From Spirochaetia bacterium (lineage in GTDB: Bacteria; Spirochaetota; Spirochaetia; DSM-2461), in contig CAXXIA010000002.1 in the NCBI GenBank assembly GCA_963666985.2, positions 2,656,001-2,720,000 of the forward strand: a stretch of 64,000 nucleotides of DNA, read 5' to 3'. A program made the position numbers. Shown here piece by piece: positions 33,001 to 54,000 of this stretch. The stretch's first letter is position 1. The number at the start of each line of letters is the position of its first letter.

Positions 33001-36000
33001 ACGATAGGATATCGATTCTCGAATTGGTTTGAGACGAATCTGACGGTCGGATACAGTTTTATCCATAAAAACTCGGCCGTTGTAAGAGCCAACAGCCTTT
33101 TTACGGTTTTGGAGATTCCCATGGGAGACGCGGGAATGATGCCGTTTTCCTTGGGCCCTCAGGTCAGTTTCTTCTTTGGGGATAAGTTTGTTGTTCAGCT
33201 TGTGGGAGATCTTCGTCTGGAGTACACCTTTGAAGAGATTCCCTTAAATCTTTTTGTCGAGGGCGGATTTGGTTTTCAATTCAACGATGACGACTGGATT
33301 GCCTGGAATTCGGGAATCGGGGTTCGGTACGTTTTTTAGGCCGGTATCGGCAGCCCCCCGCGGGGAGCGTTTCGCAGGCGGTTTCCTGCGGAAGCTTCGA
33401 AGCGGCGGCGGTTCGGCGCTTGTCTTTTAGGAAATGAAGCGGCTCGGTTGAGCCGCTTTTTTTGTGTCCGTTCGGGATGCACGGAGGGACGCCGGAACGG
33501 GCGGCCGCTGCGATGAACCGCCGCCGGGGTCAGCTGAAAAATGCCGATGCGGTTTCTTCGGAAGTGAGACTTTCTCGTTGACCTTGGGACAGTTCCATAG
33601 TTTAGATTGAAAATGCGGATTTATAGAGGTGTTTTTACTTTGGTTTGCATGCCGGTTGGCAAGAGCGAAATGCTTTCGGCCATAGTAAAACGGCAAAGAT
33701 TCACGGTCCGAGTCGGCCTTGGAGCGTGGATATTCCTCTTTGATCTTTCTCGGATCCTTATCGGGAACCGTTATTTTAAGTCAACTTAAGGAGAATGAAA
33801 ATGAAGGTAGTTAAAGATGCCGCAGGCACACCGTATGAAGCTCCAAAACATTTTGGTGTTTACGGTATTCAAAAATTTGTACAGGAATCCGAAAGAGTGA
33901 AAGTTTCCTATTCTTATTTCCAGCCGGATGGCGGCTGTGAAATGACCGGCACTCCGACGGAGAAGATTTACTACGTTGTAAAGGGCTCCATAACAATCAA
34001 AGGAAAAAATGAAAGTCATGTGCTCAATCAGGGAGACATAATTTTCATTGCCGCGAATGAAGAGCGTGCAATGTCGATTAACGACGGCAAGCCTGCCGAA
34101 GTGCTCGTTTTTGTTATTAAGCCGTAATTTTGCAGGAGATGGAAAATGAAAGATTTGTTCAGACTTGATGATAAAGTCGCCGTCGTTATCGGCGGCGCAG
34201 GCGGAATCGGCCAGTCCTGTTCCCTCGCTCTCAGTCAGCAGGGCGCCAAGGTGGTTATCGCCAGCCGGAATCGTGAGGCCATTGAAAAGGCGGCGGTTGA
34301 GATTAATAAAGAAACAGGGAATGAAACGGCCTTTTTTACGGTTGATACCTCCGACGAGGCAACCATCGGCAATCTGGTTGATCAGACCGTAAGCCGGTTC
34401 GGAAAGGTTGATATTCTGGTAAACGCCCAGGGGATGAATAAGAAAGGTCTTATTCTGGACTTCCCGGCTGAAGAATGGGACAAGCTTTTTGAGGTGAACG
34501 TTAAGGGTGTGATGCTTTGCTGCCGTACCTTCGCAAAGGCTATGAAGGAAAAGGGCGGAAAGATCATCAATATGTCTTCGGTTCGGGGCATCAGGGGAAC
34601 CGGCGGCGGAAATACCCCCTACGGCGCGACCAAGGGCGCCGTCGATATGATTACCCGAATGCTGGCGGCCGAATGGGCCGAGTATAATATCAATGTCAAC
34701 GCCATGGCTCCTTCCCTTGTTCTGACCGATGCCGTTAAAAAGGCCGTTGCTCCGGACCGTTTGAAAATGCTTGCCGCAAGCAGCCTGTTCAAGCGCCTCG
34801 GAACTCCCGAAGAAATGGCCGGCGCCTGTGTGTTTCTCGCCTCGCCCGCGGCCGATTTCATCACGGGACAAATCATTTACATTGACGGCGGTTTGACGGC
34901 CGTCGGTTAATTTGAAATTTTCATAAGTGACGTTTGGCGACTGGCCAAAAAGGCCGGATGGTGCATGACCCGCCGGCTTTTTTTATTCCCAAACGGGCGA
35001 GAGAAGCGAAGCATTATGGCAAAGCGGAGGGGCTGCGAAGAAGCTCCGCTTCAGGACAAGCTCCGGGTATTGAACCCTTTTATTTTTTCATAGATTTCAG
35101 GCAGTTTTTCTTCCAGATTTAAGGACTTCATGTCGGGGCCTGTCCAGATATGAAAGGATGTCGCCGTGCTGAGCGGAGCGGTCTCGCCGGAGCGAAACAG
35201 TTCGTATTCAAGTTCCAGTTTTTTCGGAGCATAGGATTTAACCTTCGTTTTTATCAGCAGGCTGTCGGGGTAATACGCCGGAGCAAGGTACTGAATGTTC
35301 AGGTTGACCATTGCGGGGTTGATGCCCAGCGAATCCATGTCCTGATAGGGAAATCCGATCTTGGCCATGATTTCCATACGGGCGATTTCATACCACAAGG
35401 GGTAAACAGCATGGTGCGCGATGCCCATTTTATCCACATCCGGATACCGTGTTGCAATGGAAGTTTCACAGATCATTTTCAGCCGTCCCTTCTTTATAAT
35501 ATAGCCTGAGGCAATTTCATACTCCATGAAATTGCTTCTATCTGATGCCCGAAATCCCCCCGAACGCGCTGAGGGGGGGGGGCAAAAGCCGCTGTTTTTT
35601 GGATTCACCTCACCGTGTAATAAAAACGAAGCGCTTTGAGCCTCGCGGCTTTTGGGAAGAAATCCTATTCCATAAAAAATAGCCGGGAATCCAAGGACTC
35701 CCGGCTATGGCGTTATCCGTTCTCTTTTAGGCTTTGGTCAGATAGGTCATTCCCAGGTAATGATCGGTATCCGTGAGTGCCGTGAGCTTAATCGGCGCAT
35801 ACCCTTCCTTAACGATTTCTATCTCGACGTTTTCTTTTTTAGGCAGCCATTCCACTTCCCAATCGCCGAAGTCGTTGGTGATTGCTTCAAAAACTTCTCC
35901 GCTTTTACGGCAGGTAATTTTGATTTTGGCGCCCACACAGACCTCTTCCATCTCTTCGGGGTAGTAAACGGTACCGGATAAGAAAACCGTGGGTACGTTA

Positions 36001-51000: not shown

Positions 51001-54000
51001 GGCAAACTGGATTATCCCGGGCGTCAGAGTTCCCGGTATGGGCGGCGGCATGGATCTGGTCGTCGGCTCAAACCTTGTCATCATAACCATGGAACACTGC
51101 ACCAAGAAGGGTGAGTCCAAGATTCTCAAGAAGTGCACGCTTCCTTTAACGGCCGCGGGCCAAGTCGACTATATCGTTACGGATATGGGCGTTTTTCACT
51201 GTACGGATAAGGGCCTTGTTCTTGAAGAGCTCGCTCCCGGTGTAACGGTAGATGATGTTAAGGCGAAAACAGAAGCCGATTTGATTCTATCGGACAGTCT
51301 TTAAGAAGAGGTTAGGAACTTGACGATCCAGTTAATTATTATTGTGGCTTATTTTGCCCTTACCGTCGCCATCGGCATGATTGCTCAAAAGAAATCAAAA
51401 TCCGCTACGGCATTTCACGGTGCGGGACTGGGTGTGCTTATGTGCGTTTGTGCCGGCACCGGCGAATGGCTGGGGGGCACATCAACGACCGGAGTATCCG
51501 AGTACGGTTATACGTATGGTCTCTCCGGCTCCTGGTACACGCTCGCAAACGGTATCGGCGTTATCTTCCTGGCTTTACTGTTCGCAAAGCTTTACAGAAG
51601 TCTTGAAACGGTTACCGTTCCGGGAATTTTGGAGAAATTCATCGGCGTACACGCCCGTGTCGTTTCAAGCATCATGCTGACCTTCGTTATGCTCGCCGTC
51701 GGCATTTCCCAGATGATTGCCGCAGGCACATTGGGTGTTACGCTGCTGGGGTTGGACTTCAACGTAGCCGTAATCGCTTTCGCGATTGTCTTCATTATCT
51801 ATACTCTGGCGGGCGGTATGAACGCGGTCGCCAGTACCAATATTCTGCATCTGTTCGCAATGTACGGCGGTATCGTGATTGCCCTTTTATTCGCGCTGAA
51901 AGCCGTCGGCGGCATGGGCGTTGTTTCGGAAACTCTTCCCGAATCATATTTTTCCATGACCGCCATCGGTATGCCGAAGGTTTCGTCCTGGATTATCGCT
52001 TCCCTGCTCGGCGCCTGTACCGCTCAGGCCGGTATTCAGCCGATCCTGGCCGCCAAGGATACGAATGTCGCTAAAAAGGCCGCGATTATTACGGCCGTCA
52101 TTGTTGCTCCCTTCGGTCTGCTGACCGCTCTTCTCGGTATGATCGCCAAGGTTCAGTTCCCCAACCTCGAGAACGCCAAGCTTGCTCTGCCGACGTTAAT
52201 GCTCAGCCTGCCTCCCGTAGCCGGAGGTATCGTCCTTGCATCCATTCTCGCGGCGATCCTTTCAACGGTTTCGCCTATCATCCTGGCATCGGGAACGATG
52301 ATTACAAAGGATGTTTACCATAGAATCCTGAAAACCGACGCCAGCGACGAACAGGTTCTCAGAATGTCCAGAATTACCACCGCGATAGCGGGGGTGATCT
52401 GTACAATCGGCGCACTTCTCATGTACGGTTCCACGCGAATCCTGGACATTGTCTACTTCGCGTACTCAATTCGGGGCGCTCTGTTTGTCGTTCTTCTGTT
52501 TGGTATTTATTGGAAAAAGCTTTCCGAAAAGGGTGCCGTTTACAGCATGATTTTAACCGCCGCCGTAGGCTGTTTCTGGGTTGTGTTTAAAGCAATCACC
52601 GGCAGCAATCCGATCCACGCCGCGTTTACGGAAACCTATGCGGCGGTGATTACCGCGACAATTGCCTCGGTGATCTTTACGAAGATATTCCCTAAAGATA
52701 TGTCTGCAAAGAAATTATAATAAAATAACCGCGTTATTGGAGGAATATGATGGAACCGATTTCCATTGCAGTCCTAGGCATTATTCTGCTGATCATTCTG
52801 CTCGCAATGGGCATGAATATCGGTATTACTATGTTTGCCGTAGGCTTTCTCGGCTGCCTGATGATCCGCGATTGGAATGCCGCGATAGGCGTTCTGAAAA
52901 CCGTACCGTTTAACCAGAGTATGACCTATTCCTATACGGTTATACCGCTTTTCGTTCTGATGGGACAATTCGCCTTTCACTCGGGGATGTCCGCCGATCT
53001 CTTCGACTGTGCCAACAAGTGGCTTGGGGGGTTGAAGGGCGGACTTTCCATGGCGACCATCATGGCCTGTGCCGGCTTCGCGGCCATTTGCGGCTCCACC
53101 GCCGCCACCGCGGCGACCATGGGCGTCGTCGCTCTTCCGGAAATGCGTAAAGCGGGCTATAACGACGGTCTTTCGACCGGCTCCATTGCCGCCGGCGGGA
53201 CACTCGGCATTCTCATCCCCCCCAGTACGGGCTTCATTATTTACGGCATCGTCGCCGAGCAGTCCATCGGGAAACTGTTTATGGCGGGAATTATCCCCGG
53301 AATCGTTTTGGCGGTGTGCTATATGATTTCCGTTTCCGTACAGGTTAAGATCCGTCCCGAGCTGGCCCCGCCCACAAATAAGTTCGGTTTTAAAGAAAAA
53401 TTAATCGCCCTGAAGGGCGGCGCCGCGATGATCGCTCTTTTCCTTATCGTTATCGGCGGTATGTTCATCAATCTCTTTACGGCAAATGAGGCGGCGGCCG
53501 TCGGCGCGTCTCTGGCCCTGATTTATCTTATCGCCCGCCGCCGTTTTTCACTGAAGGTTCTTATAGCCTGTCTGCGCGATACCGTGAAAACTTCCGCCAT
53601 GGTGTTTCTCATCATGATCGGCGCCTACGTGTTCGGATCTTTCCTGGCCATCGCACGGCTTCCCATGACTCTTGCGGCCTTCGTTGAGGGACTTGCCGTA
53701 AGCCGATATGTGATTCTGGCCGTAATCGTCCTGCTTTATGCCGTTATGGGCTGTCTTATGGATTCCCTGGCAATGGTTATGCTGACCGTGCCCATTTTCC
53801 TTCCGATAATCATGGGTCTCGGATTCGATCCCATCTGGTACGGCGTTTTGATGATCATGGTTATGGAAATGGGCCTGATTACGCCGCCGGTTGGAATGAA
53901 TGTCTATATCGTCGCGGGCGTCGCGAAGGATGTTCCCTTAACAAGAATCTTCAGAGGCGTAACGCCGATGGTTTTTGCGATGCTGGTGGCGATTGTGATT

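Follow-up and report, generated by a model that had tools for sequence, protein, structure and literature searches.

The closest described counterparts of the locus analysed here are the pyrogallol–phloroglucinol transhydroxylase AthL/BthL, solved as pyrogallol hydroxytransferase (4v4c), and the route downstream of phloroglucinol, for which we assign enzyme roles after Zhou et al. 2023 (PMC10470551; this and later references are to portions of its text and supplement). According to that account, the cyclohydrolase CsDPGC is related to isatin hydrolase, and Trp16 of CsTAL is the mark by which TAL is told from the enzyme of the lysine pathway. Among known relatives of the transhydroxylase is the Ser-ligated resorcinol hydroxylase RhL (PMC10100899).

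A 64,000-nucleotide stretch of a Spirochaetia genome (the window) encodes two pairs of transhydroxylase-like subunits, TH1 and TH2, together with lower-pathway enzymes. The genome-wide survey's note had proposed a pyrogallol-to-phloroglucinol-to-acetyl-CoA route, and the gene content fits it. Judging from sequence as a whole, we think it probable that the bacterium acquired a catabolic island of about 22.8 kb which would convert plant-derived trihydroxybenzenes to acetyl-CoA and acetate, and that in guts and digesters islands of this type pass between strictly anaerobic Clostridia and their neighbours.

An island between conserved flanks

The bounds of the island (Table 1) follow from comparison with the closest relative searched (G006, locus L081). 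The flanks of the two genomes are collinear, with a small OMP-like gene and HtpG on one side and Rrf2, PtsP and ProC on the other. Between the same flanking genes, the relative lacks the island and has only about 1.4 kb with two paralogues of the OMP-like gene in place of 22.8 kb. No tRNA genes were found within positions 28000–58000 of the window. Overlaps of 4 nt join BKACE to orf137 and TH1 alpha to TH1 beta; between orf150 and TH1 alpha lie 3 nt. Each gene that the survey named is an intact ORF at the position given, with its family matched in Pfam and NCBIfam. The survey's extent for the locus, 34146–51304, proved too short: the functional unit runs from the cupin gene to the end of the TRAP genes and further includes the 4HBT thioesterase, orf150, orf137, the LysR and MerR regulators, the SSF symporter, and DctM, DctP and DctQ.

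Table 1. Features of the island, in window coordinates.
Feature	Position	Strand	Evidence
Inserted island	33340..56168	.	~22.8 kb; bounds by comparison with relative G006
Functional unit (cupin to TRAP genes)	33795..55934		gene calls and family matches
Small cupin, 110 aa	33795..34127	+	PF07883 Cupin_2, E 4.7e-09
SDR, candidate phloroglucinol reductase	34146..34910	+	adh_short_C2, E 5.7e-66
Hotdog (4HBT) thioesterase	35051..35608	-	PF03061, E 4e-12
Palindromic repeat copy within island	35511..35535	.	GCAATTTCAT-N5-ATGAAATTGC
TH1 small subunit (beta), BthL-like, three Fe-S motifs	35727..36593	-	4v4c_B best match, E 2.6e-39
TH1 large subunit (alpha), AthL-like	36590..39265	-	4v4c_A, E 1.2e-228; PF21423, PF00384, PF01568
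orf150, conserved protein	39269..39721	-	no Pfam/NCBIfam family
orf137, conserved protein	39726..40139	-	no Pfam/NCBIfam family
BKACE, candidate triacetate acetoacetate-lyase	40136..40984	-	PF05853, E 3.7e-90
Thiolase, acetyl-CoA C-acetyltransferase	41006..42205	-	Thiolase_N + Thiolase_C; TIGR01930, 476 bits, above cut-off
LysR-type regulator, divergent from TH2	42269..43282	-	HTH_1 + LysR_substrate
TH2 large subunit (alpha), divergent AthL-like	43325..46057	+	4v4c_A, E 2.3e-140
TH2 small subunit (beta) with fourth Fe-S motif	46061..46876	+	4v4c_B best match, E 2.7e-50
MerR-type regulator, divergent from cyclase operon	46927..47817	-	MerR_1, E 9.9e-13
Cyclase-family hydrolase, candidate dihydrophloroglucinol cyclohydrolase	48128..49015	+	PF04199, E 2e-31
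3-Hydroxyacyl dehydrogenase, candidate 3-hydroxy-5-oxohexanoate dehydrogenase	49015..49977	+	3HCDH_N + 3HCDH
3-Oxoacid CoA-transferase subunits A/B	49996..51304	+	PF01144 twice; TIGR02429 and TIGR02428 above cut-offs
Sodium:solute symporter (SSF)	51320..52720	+	PF00474, E 3.1e-46
TRAP transporter DctM, DctP, DctQ	52747..55934	+	PF06808, PF03480, PF04290

The LysR protein is 55–74% identical to the TH2-adjacent LysR of clostridial loci; since its HTH begins at residue 43, the true start is probably near 43162. The MerR protein, at 42–56% identity, occupies the same cyclase-adjacent place in such loci, and the two regulators may control two divergent operon pairs. Uptake of a phenolic substrate could be the task of the SSF symporter, which shares 62–70% identity with the module-end symporter of loci L041 and L076, and/or of the TRAP system, whose DctM is 67–72% identical to TH1-adjacent TRAP genes in two Synergistaceae loci (L013, L024) and in L055. 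The cupin resembles proteins of about 120 aa in clostridial loci L041 and L008 at 22–25% identity (E 2e-09, 3e-11). The thioesterase, which probably starts at 35476, has a homologue in only one of 78 loci (L065) and scores 66.7 bits against the NCBIfam model of the YbgC/FadM subfamily, for which the cut-off is 68.7.

Neither orf150 nor orf137 matched anything in the Pfam and NCBIfam searches. Among the 60 loci with enough flank, orf150 immediately precedes the TH1 alpha gene in 44, and orf137 is found upstream of TH1 in 36; 16 columns of orf150 and seven of orf137 are invariant among 32 sequences. The predicted model of orf150 (pLDDT 88) has a winged-helix-like N-terminal part and a small beta-barrel, while that of orf137 (pLDDT 84) reaches a best structural Z of only 5.7.

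TH1 and the proposed route to acetyl-CoA

The large subunit of pyrogallol hydroxytransferase (4v4c_A) is the best solved relative of both TH1 alpha and TH2 alpha; DMSO reductases come next at only ~1e-68 to 1e-72. The AthL-aligned part begins at residue 6 in TH1 alpha and at residue 18 in TH2 alpha, and neither has a long N-terminal leader. We tracked H144, R153, D174, S175, W176, Y404 and Y560 (AthL numbering), which we take to be the relevant pocket residues and whose roles were reportedly worked out by Messerschmidt and co-workers in 2004. TH1 alpha keeps all of these except R153, which is replaced by Lys. Y404 and Y560 are kept in 65 of 65 TH1-like sequences, and H144, D174, S175 and W176 in 64, the 65th having a gap. 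TH1 beta, like BthL, is without the third CxxCxxCxxxCP motif, and one full motif of this kind is found in all 65 TH1b-like ORFs. At the level of sequence, then, pocket and Fe-S pattern both match the transhydroxylase. TH1 would be a Mo-bis-pyranopterin enzyme of the cytoplasm, its Fe-S subunit holding three clusters, and would isomerise pyrogallol to phloroglucinol through the same hydroxyl transfer as AthL/BthL. The host encodes four other Mo-bisPGD enzymes as well as MoeA, so that the cofactor is available.

The SDR would then reduce phloroglucinol to dihydrophloroglucinol with NADPH, a role that we infer from context. It exceeds the cut-off of a generic NCBIfam 'glucose 1-dehydrogenase' subfamily model, shares 42–48% identity with SDRs of clostridial loci and 56% with the one in locus L026, and reads S-R-N at residues 40–42, where PGRs have T-R-(S/N). 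Ring opening to 3-hydroxy-5-oxohexanoate would fall to the cyclase-family hydrolase, whose only solved relative, as for CsDPGC, is isatin hydrolase. Its identity to clostridial loci is 76–84% (83% to the Sporobacter termitidis cyclase); the best match among 60 relatives of the host reaches 30%, and no close homologue exists there. Members of this subfamily are 295–302 aa long, and the DPGC entries in Supplementary data 3 of Zhou et al. 2023 (PMC10470551) include proteins of 260, 268, 311, 336 and 337 aa; no Sporobacter entry was seen among those searched.

The 3-hydroxyacyl dehydrogenase, 68–84% identical to cyclase-adjacent genes in clostridial loci, is predicted to convert 3-hydroxy-5-oxohexanoate to triacetate. 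The BKACE protein, for which Kce is the best solved relative (2y7d, E 2.8e-59), would turn triacetate and acetyl-CoA into acetoacetate and acetoacetyl-CoA. Where Kce carries Glu14 and CsTAL Trp16, the residue is Gly here and in the BKACE of 12 of the 15 further loci that matched at the N terminus. The CoA-transferase and the thiolase (60–75% identical to clostridial-locus thiolases) would complete the conversion to acetyl-CoA, with ATP gained via the acetate kinase route of the host, in which acetate kinase is present. The survey's statement that every enzyme of the solved pathway is encoded thus stands at the family level and, given the BKACE Gly, not beyond it.

This same Gly is one reason to consider that the island degrades another ring compound: hydroxyhydroquinone, cyclic diones (resorcinol-type or substituted), or gallate directly. 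TRAP systems transport carboxylates and adjoin TH1 in six of 78 loci, which suggests gallate as a substrate. As the survey had noted, no gallate decarboxylase is linked to the locus: none was found within the island, and the genome's single UbiD homologue lies among sugar-transport and amidohydrolase genes. The low identity of the SDR to its clostridial-locus counterparts, the remodelled TH2 pocket described below and a cyclase subfamily not seen among the searched DPGC entries of PMC10470551 also favour a different substrate. However, TH1 retains the AthL pocket almost completely, and the proven route (PMC10470551) uses exactly the four lower-pathway families encoded here, along with thiolase and CtfAB. 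Moreover, homologues of the cyclase (61% identity) and of the SDR lie in an SDR–cyclase–dehydrogenase–BKACE block in L026, a locus titled Dehalococcoidales, in an arrangement similar to that of the Chloroflexi clusters given as the pathway by Zhou et al. (PMC10470551). We therefore consider another substrate rather unlikely.

The second transhydroxylase-like pair

TH2 alpha is only 31% identical to TH1 alpha. H144, D174, S175 and W176 are kept. Position 153 is Ser, however, position 404 is Ile and a deletion spans the Y560 loop, and all 17 close TH2 sequences share this pattern. Because the pocket is changed, its reaction is not readable from AthL, and hydroxyhydroquinone, which the survey had offered as an example of a substrate, is a guess. 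In TH2 beta a further motif, C100-x2-C-x2-C-x3-C-P, occupies a stretch that lacks cysteines in BthL and TH1 beta; a second full CxxCxxCxxxCP motif occurs in 12 of 18 TH2b-like ORFs. We see TH2 as a paralogue whose pocket has been remodelled and whose small subunit would hold four clusters; most likely it supplies the same route with another hydroxylated benzene or carries out a redox hydroxylation.

A complete fourth motif is the normal state in electron-conducting subunits of the Mo enzyme family. Its presence in TH2 beta, and its absence from BthL and TH1 beta, could mean that one or both Mo enzymes are redox enzymes, either resorcinol hydroxylase-like or reductive dehydroxylases, that exchange electrons with an outside partner; RhL provides a precedent (PMC10100899). 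Yet no gene for an electron donor or acceptor (cytochrome, membrane anchor or flavoprotein) was found within the island, and TH1 is transhydroxylase-like in both pocket and Fe-S pattern. We regard redox chemistry in this sense as improbable and prefer hydroxyl transfer for TH1.

Origin and distribution

The 4.86-Mb genome has exactly two occurrences of PF21423. The rarity of this family, as claimed by the survey, holds within the searched sets: none of 60 relatives has it (13 from the host's genus, a further 23 from the family and 24 from other families of the class), and among 400 additional genomes of the phylum two do. The nearest homologues of the island genes all lie outside the phylum. 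A bin titled 'Spirochaetes bacterium' (L007) has TH1 at 88% identity. TH1 alpha of the window falls in a clade with nine Bacillota rows (SH-aLRT 96), and TH2 alpha (FastTree) in an 18-row clade with support 100, made up of 15 Bacillota, one row titled Bacteroidota and two ungrouped rows, including the window. Both large subunits are nested in Bacillota clades; since loci were chosen by likeness to TH1 alpha, the trees are unable to show more distant donors. Since the 22.8 kb also stand out as a clean insertion against the nearest relative, horizontal acquisition, as the survey had proposed, is well supported.

An Oscillospiraceae row has a near-identical counterpart titled Bacteroidaceae, and taxonomic labels of metagenome bins may be wrong. 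FlaA (PF04620), with three matches in the host genome against none in 14 control genomes, marks the host as a spirochaete. Many of the related records are such bins, but it is very improbable that assembly or binning created the island, or that the cell carries it silently and unused: it lies inside a 3.12-Mb contig between spirochaete-syntenic genes on both flanks, 21 of its 21 genes are intact ORFs, and it holds a copy of a repeat with 21 genome sites at ≤1 mismatch (reversed control 0), which argues for residence in this genome. The copy forms a 54-nt inverted repeat with 30638–30691.

The locus is not clearly the first of its kind in spirochaetes, as the survey had supposed, given the L007 bin and two 'Spirochaetes bacterium' contigs with PGR, DPGC, TfD and TAL homologues in Supplementary data 2 of Zhou et al. 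2023 (PMC10470551). Nor is its design unique: the two-transhydroxylase module, along with lower-pathway genes, is conserved in many Clostridia, including S. termitidis, at 75–89% identity. TH2 is found at an identity of at least 70% in 17 of 78 fetched loci, and the full gene set in four of 24 loci of at least 20 kb. Gene order and gene set are near-identical in the cultured S. termitidis DSM 10068 and in other Clostridia. The pathway itself is already known; what is unusual is the spirochaete host and a few unstudied parts.

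The island and its insertion site

The genome-wide survey's note had read this part of the window as a fermentation locus with two transhydroxylase-like molybdenum enzyme pairs, and its gene list is borne out: all the genes that it named are present as intact open reading frames, with families assigned by Pfam and NCBIfam. The extent that it gave does not hold, however, as the unit is larger and also takes in a cupin, a thioesterase, LysR and MerR genes, an SSF symporter, a TRAP transporter, and orf137 and orf150, two conserved ORFs of no known family. TH1 and TH2 denote the two pairs resembling AthL/BthL, alpha being the large subunit and beta the small Fe-S subunit.

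Features of the island and its surroundings (window positions)
Feature	Position	Strand	Placement	Assignment
Alpha/beta hydrolase (S9/S33-like)	26519-27520	-	between NifU and CNNM genes	
IS110-family transposase	29396-30535	-	between CNNM gene and htpG, 3 kb upstream of island	DEDD_Tnp_IS110 + Transposase_20
Palindrome copy	30661-30685			
Small OMP-like gene	32842-33339	+		no Pfam family
Cupin, 110 aa	33795-34127		upstream of SDR	distant homologue of small cupins; related clostridial loci
SDR	34146-34910			Pfam, NCBIfam
Hotdog thioesterase			between SDR and TH1	
Palindrome copy	35511-35535		inside island	
TH1 beta, BthL-like Fe-S subunit	35727-36593			Pfam, NCBIfam
TH1 alpha, AthL-like large subunit	36590-39265			Pfam, NCBIfam
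orf150, 150 aa	39269-39721		between BKACE and TH1 alpha, tightly packed with orf137	no Pfam or NCBIfam family
orf137, 137 aa	39726-40139		between BKACE and TH1 alpha, tightly packed with orf150	no Pfam or NCBIfam family
BKACE	40136-40984			Pfam, NCBIfam
Thiolase	41006-42205			Pfam, NCBIfam
LysR gene			divergent from TH2	
TH2 alpha	43325-46057			Pfam, NCBIfam
TH2 beta	46061-46876			Pfam, NCBIfam
MerR gene			divergent from cyclase operon	
Cyclase-family protein	48128-49015			Pfam, NCBIfam
3-Hydroxyacyl dehydrogenase	49015-49977			Pfam, NCBIfam
CoA-transferase, two subunits	49996-51304			Pfam, NCBIfam
SSF symporter and complete TRAP (DctM, DctP, DctQ)	up to 55934		downstream of CoA-transferase	
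GAF-PtsP (enzyme I-Ntr-like)	56786-59467	-		

Alignment with the syntenic region (L081) of G006, the closest relative searched (HtpG 81% and PtsP 67% identical to the window proteins), leaves window positions ~33340-56168 without a counterpart. The flanks on both sides are collinear, with NifU, CNNM, HtpG and a small OMP-like gene on one side and Rrf2, PtsP, ProC and an MFS gene on the other, and the distance from htpG to ptsP is 2.8 kb in G006 versus 24 kb in the window. At the island site G006 has two more paralogues of the small OMP-like gene, so that there are three in tandem (L081 5931-6452, 6548-7054 and 7103-7651), two of them at the place of the island; the gene is single in the window. 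Its product, with a signal peptide and a C-terminal GIGVRYVF/L, looks like a small beta-barrel outer-membrane protein. The flanks show a second, minor difference, in that the alpha/beta hydrolase gene lacks a syntenic counterpart in G006. The GAF-PtsP gene is an open 893-aa frame; its matches in five same-genus relatives (G001, G005, G006, G009 and G012) each carry 2-3 TGA codons inside the matched stretch, some also TAA or TAG, which may be a product of the alignment or a genuine difference.

As to the mode of entry, no tRNA was found near the island, no integrase was found among the ORFs scanned, and a search for flanking direct or terminal repeats gave nothing beyond chance-like 18-30-nt pairs. 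Carriage on plasmids can be dismissed, the best of 74 matching records being 42.7% identical to TH1 alpha and all 74 falling below 60%. A palindrome, GCAATTTCAT-N5-ATGAAATTGC, occurs at 21 sites of the genome with at most one mismatch, against none for the reversed control. The palindrome resembles a host element of the REP or MITE kind, or else a host regulator site. Its two window copies share 54 nt at 80% identity. Because a repeat found throughout the host genome has a copy inside the island, the island appears to have been resident in the genome for some time. A link between the repeat and the IS110 transposase, which is missing at the syntenic site of G006, was rejected, since the transposase is single-copy in the genome and the repeat is present at 21 sites.

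The host is a spirochaete: FlaA, the sheath family of the periplasmic flagellum, has three matches in its genome, against none in 14 control genomes. Within the 4.86 Mb of the host genome, the AthL-specific domain PF21423 occurs only at TH1 and TH2. It was found in none of 60 relatives. These comprise 13 genomes of the genus, 23 others of the family and a single genome for each of 24 further families of the class, and 42 of them are at least 90% complete with no more than 5% contamination. In an even sample of 400 other genomes of the phylum it turned up in two, which belong to the same family outside the class. A homologue of the island cyclase above 30% identity was likewise absent from the 60 relatives. 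The survey's view of the locus as a rarity thus stands for the order and class as sampled, but its claim to be the first in spirochaetes does not quite hold. Among the entries of Supplementary data 2 of Zhou et al. 2023 (PMC10470551) are two "Spirochaetes bacterium" contigs that have homologues for PGR, DPGC, TfD as well as TAL, and L007, a "Spirochaetes bacterium" bin, carries orf137, orf150, TH1 alpha/beta (TH1 alpha 88% identical) and a 51% TH2-like gene. The string "Spirochaet" does not occur in the main text of PMC10470551, and our text search of the literature found no paper describing such a locus in a spirochaete.

BKACE genes, on the other hand, are common in the lineage, with seven matches in this genome. 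The six outside the island (C2:2290370, C2:2321026, C2:2646115, C1:54238, C1:329921 and C1:735043) are 29-52% identical to the island copy. Two of the further BKACE genes lie within a few kb of butyrate/acetate-kinase-like genes (C2:2293748 and C2:2317991), which suggests other beta-keto-acid cleavage pathways in the spirochaete.

Two transhydroxylase-like pairs and two small proteins

Among all solved structures, the best relative of TH1 alpha is the large subunit of pyrogallol hydroxytransferase, 4v4c_A (E 1.2e-228 versus 5e-68 for the next family). The same structure is the best match of TH2 alpha (E 2.3e-140), DMSO and TMAO reductases are far behind for both, and 4v4c_B is the top solved match of both small subunits. 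PF21423 scores 58.1 bits in TH1 alpha and 44.3 bits in TH2 alpha (cut-off 27). The two large subunits are 31% identical to each other; of the identities to AthL quoted in the survey's note (~43% for TH1 alpha, ~36% for TH2 alpha), we could support the ranking only, by score (765 versus 472 bits).

AthL numbering was transferred to TH1 alpha through the PDB alignment. The residues H144, R153, D174, S175, W176, Y404 and Y560 of AthL, which we take to be the Mo ligand (Ser175) and the substrate/cosubstrate pocket, are reportedly those whose roles were described by Messerschmidt et al. in 2004. TH1 alpha keeps H144, D174-S175-W176, Y404 and Y560, and has Lys in place of R153. Among TH1-like sequences, Y404 and Y560 are as in TH1 alpha in 65 of 65, and the other sites in 64 of 65, one row being gapped. 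TH1 beta has the same Cys-free stretch as 4v4c_B: the third ferredoxin-type Cys motif is absent from both, leaving a three-motif pattern, and one full Fe-S motif is found in all 65 TH1 beta-like ORFs. The C-terminal CarboxypepD_reg match of TH1 beta is weak (E 6e-04). Since these AthL residues other than R153 are kept and TH1 beta lacks the same Cys motif as BthL, TH1 is, as judged from its sequence, a good candidate for a true pyrogallol-phloroglucinol transhydroxylase.

TH2 presents a different picture. Its large subunit keeps H144, D174, S175 and W176, but position 153 is Ser, position 404 is Ile and a deletion covers the Y560 loop, and the same three changes are found in all 17 close TH2 sequences. 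TH2 beta has a complete CxxCxxCxxxCP at residues 100-111, a fourth Fe-S motif where BthL and TH1 beta have none; a second full motif of this type is present in 12 of 18 TH2 beta-like ORFs. In this enzyme family, partner subunits that conduct electrons usually have four clusters. Because the pocket set R153/Y404/Y560 is not retained, TH2 appears to be a relative of pyrogallol transhydroxylase rather than that enzyme itself. The alignments point to a clade that is distinct and conserved, with a reaction that AthL does not reveal; TH2 may act on another isomer, such as hydroxyhydroquinone, as the survey's note guessed, or perform a redox hydroxylation. Net oxidation is carried out by a known relative, resorcinol hydroxylase (PMC10100899), and genomes with two transhydroxylase operons were noted in Chloroflexi as early as 2013 (PMC3971608).

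Two small genes usually accompany TH1. Of 60 loci with at least 1.3 kb of upstream sequence, 44 have orf150 directly upstream of TH1 alpha and 36 have orf137 upstream of TH1; both are present in 31 and neither in 11. In 32 sequences, 16 columns of orf150 and seven of orf137 are invariant. The folds are predicted with pLDDT 88 for orf150 and 84 for orf137, and the orf150 model is a winged-helix-like domain followed by a small SH3/Tudor-like barrel. Foldseek gave no match at E <= 0.001 for either protein, and ESM Atlas nothing usable. VIA-align returned only generic winged-helix and small-barrel matches for orf150 (best Z 9.0 over 79 residues) and no informative match for orf137 (best Z 5.7). 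No longer fused form of orf150 was found among 7999 candidates, a weak form of evidence, and the predicted complex of orf150 with orf137 scored 0.00, which counts neither for nor against a complex. From their linkage, the two proteins may have an accessory or assembly role for TH1.

Taken further, these observations might mean that the island encodes two undescribed enzyme forms, TH2 being a redox hydroxylase and TH1 part of a larger complex with orf137 and orf150; as a whole, we regard this reading as unlikely. Under it, TH2, with its remodelled pocket, would be a four-cluster redox hydroxylase that makes the tetrahydroxybenzene cosubstrate priming the TH1 cycle, or that converts a different isomer, for example hydroxyhydroquinone, and orf137 and orf150 would be new subunits or assembly factors specific to the TH1 branch.

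Proposed lower pathway and fit to the host

The pathway roles of PGR, DPGC, TfD, TAL, thiolase and CtfAB were established in Clostridium scatologenes, and we rely here on parts of that description (Zhou et al. 2023, PMC10470551). The survey's note had found every enzyme of the pathway in the locus. At the level of protein families this is so, all steps being covered, but the diagnostic residues are mixed, with Gly in the BKACE and S-R-N in the SDR.

In the parts of PMC10470551 used here, TAL is a BKACE close to the lysine-pathway enzyme Kce, in which Kce Glu14, the residue binding the 5-amino group in the lysine-pathway enzyme, is replaced by Trp16. The window BKACE has neither Glu nor Trp at this site but Gly17. 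In 15 other loci with an N-terminal match the site is Gly in 12, Ala in one, Trp in one (L074) and Gly within a different motif in one. Against the NCBIfam equivalog NF052387 the window protein scores 280.9 bits, under the cut-off of 382. With the amino-group ligand lost and a pocket that would be roomier, the protein may nonetheless act as TAL does.

DPGC is described in the same parts of PMC10470551 as a Mn enzyme of the cyclase family (PF04199) in which Trp20 and Tyr22 replace substrate residues of isatin hydrolase. The window cyclase belongs to PF04199 and has W28 and W35-P-F37 in its N-terminus. It falls in a group of 295-302 aa; DPGC entries among those listed in Supplementary data 3 of PMC10470551 have 260, 268, 311, 336 and 337 aa. 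A homologue search for a link to CsDPGC, the C. scatologenes enzyme, returned close relatives only, at 70% identity or above and without informative names. "Sporobacter" is absent from the five supplementary files of PMC10470551, and six contig accessions of TH1 loci did not turn up in the portion of its Supplementary data 2 that was searched.

For PGR, the same source describes an SDR whose T-R-(S/N) motif serves the NADPH 2'-phosphate. The window SDR has S-R-N at residues 40-42, where PGRs have that motif; a motif of this kind is common in NADPH-dependent SDRs. TfD is described there as having the 3-hydroxyacyl-CoA dehydrogenase fold with the catalytic His/Ser/Asn kept and without the CoA-binding Lys56 and Asn221. 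The window dehydrogenase has this fold, with H144 and N195 one residue off the CsTfD numbering.

The host genome has four other Mo-bisPGD enzymes and MoeA, as well as acetate kinase. Two 725-aa molybdopterin oxidoreductase frames (C2:1253332-1254597 and C2:2845462-2846727) have identical scores (151.2 bits, E 4.4e-44) and may be a duplicated segment or an assembly repeat; two more molybdopterin oxidoreductases, of 761 and 758 aa, lie at C2:1243995 and C3:81111. In agreement with the survey's note, no gallate decarboxylase of the UbiD/LpdC type is linked to the island: the single UbiD match in the genome is ~1.8 Mb away, where its neighbours are sugar ABC-transporter, amidohydrolase and GntR genes, and it shows no link to aromatics. 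Five clostridial loci likewise gave no UbiD-family gene among 35 extra ORFs scanned. Since the molybdenum enzymes, MoeA and acetate kinase are in place and the UbiD gene is unconnected with aromatics, the organism could make direct use of pyrogallol or phloroglucinol; for gallate, a decarboxylase would be required. The island's TRAP transporter, of the carboxylate type, does not sit easily with the missing gallate decarboxylase. Its DctM is 67-72% identical to TRAP genes that adjoin TH1 in two Synergistaceae loci and in L055, another locus fetched by likeness to TH1 alpha.

Source of the module and comparison with known systems

A scan with TH1 alpha over one genome per prokaryotic species gave 78 loci. 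The great majority bear the titles Oscillospiraceae, Clostridiales, Family XIII, Peptococcaceae, Sporobacter or Papillibacter, and a few Synergistaceae, Desulfobacteraceae, Dehalococcoidales, Gaiellales or Sporomusa silvacetica; one is a "Spirochaetes bacterium" bin. Termite-gut or digester samples gave their names to many of the bins. In most of the loci the identity to TH1 alpha is 81-89%, TH2 alpha is found at 70% identity or more in 17 of the 78, and the cyclase at 60% or more in 12. In four loci (L041, L040, L046 and L059) TH2 alpha/beta, TH1 alpha/beta, thiolase, SDR, MerR, cyclase, dehydrogenase, BKACE, CtfA/B and SSF stand in one run, and the full gene set is present in four of the 24 loci at least 20 kb long. 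Most of the module is found in L003, L008 (Sporobacter termitidis DSM 10068), L039, L044 and L076; S. termitidis converts methoxylated aromatics to acetate.

Trees of these loci, which were chosen by likeness to TH1 alpha and include bins that may be mislabelled, place window TH1 alpha in a clade with nine Bacillota rows (IQ-TREE quick mode, SH-aLRT 96) or with 15 (FastTree, support 95). For TH2 alpha, FastTree gave an 18-row clade with support 100, in which 15 rows are Bacillota, one is titled Bacteroidota and two have no group, the window being one of these two. On the question of independent acquisition in the two spirochaete records, the AU test does not reject a joint clade of the TH1 alpha proteins of the window and L007 (p 0.452). 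The best homologues of the cyclase in a large protein collection are 83% identical, the named ones being Clostridia, Synergistales and a deltaproteobacterial bin. Against the clostridial loci, the SDR (42-48%), BKACE (47-54%) and CtfA/B (51-64%, and 69-77% in L055) show much lower similarity than the other genes do, and the island is therefore probably a mosaic.

Some clostridial loci, such as L046 (1-5018 and 5097-8649) and L064, have two or three tandem TH2-type pairs, including a sub-clade at 57-58% identity to window TH2 alpha in which Arg occupies the Y404 position; further diversification has thus taken place in the TH2 branch. In the acetogen Sporomusa silvacetica DSM 10669 (L034, 13724-21318), an MFS gene and two URO-D/MtaA-like methyltransferase genes adjoin orf137, orf150 and TH1 alpha/beta, an arrangement consistent with the transhydroxylase being linked to O-demethylation of methoxylated aromatics.

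Neither the pathway nor the enzyme family is new, and clusters in which transhydroxylase-like enzymes are combined with the phloroglucinol route occur widely. What is particular here is the host lineage, the cleanly bounded insertion, and the documentation of the TH2 clade, the orf137/orf150 pair and the Gly-type BKACE of the clostridial module. If expressed, the island would make a spirochaete lineage able to ferment tannin- and lignin-derived trihydroxybenzenes, and it shows the trait passing entire, in a single block, from one phylum of anaerobes to another. It also offers leads on the enzyme family: a second clade of transhydroxylases that is widespread and differs in its pocket and by an additional Fe-S cluster, two conserved proteins of no known family that accompany the first clade, and a BKACE subgroup with Gly at the specificity site. 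As the module is common in gut and digester Clostridia, the functions of all three bear on polyphenol turnover in guts and digesters.

Four known systems invite comparison. AthL/BthL of Pelobacter acidigallici (PDB 4v4c, 4v4d and 4v4e), the best solved relative of both pairs, shares with TH1 and TH2 the PF21423 domain 1, the D-S-W with its Ser ligand and a C-terminal carboxypeptidase-regulatory-like domain in the small subunit. With TH1 it also shares H144, Y404, Y560 and the three-motif Fe-S pattern, the difference being Lys for R153, whereas TH2 departs from it in Ser153, Ile404, the deleted Y560 loop and the fourth Fe-S motif. Resorcinol hydroxylase RhL/RhS of Azoarcus anaerobius, set beside TH2 by its description in PMC10100899, is a Ser-ligated, cytoplasmic enzyme of the same DMSO reductase family branch that acts on a hydroxybenzene, but it differs in catalyzing a net oxidation coupled to respiration.

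The phloroglucinol cluster of C. scatologenes, which we compared by families and by the residues described in parts of PMC10470551, has the protein families and the overall logic in common with the island. Isatin hydrolase is the only solved relative of both CsDPGC and the window cyclase, and CsTAL and the window BKACE are both closest to Kce and both lack its Glu14. The cyclases differ in length (295 aa in the window versus ~312 aa, as inferred from coverage values in Supplementary data 2), and the cluster as described in those parts of the paper has no transhydroxylases, cupin, orf137, orf150 or TRAP.

The clostridial modules with two transhydroxylases (L008, L041, L040, L046 and L059) share with the island the set LysR, TH2 alpha/beta, orf137, orf150, TH1 alpha/beta, thiolase, SDR, MerR, cyclase, dehydrogenase, BKACE, CtfAB and SSF, at identities of 75-89% for TH1 alpha, 75-85% for TH2 alpha and 76-84% for the cyclase. 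The gene order differs, in that the TH1 block of the window is inverted, with BKACE and thiolase in front of orf137. A MobA-like gene of L041 and L008 is absent from the island, whereas the thioesterase and the TRAP transporter are additions of the window relative to the clostridial modules.
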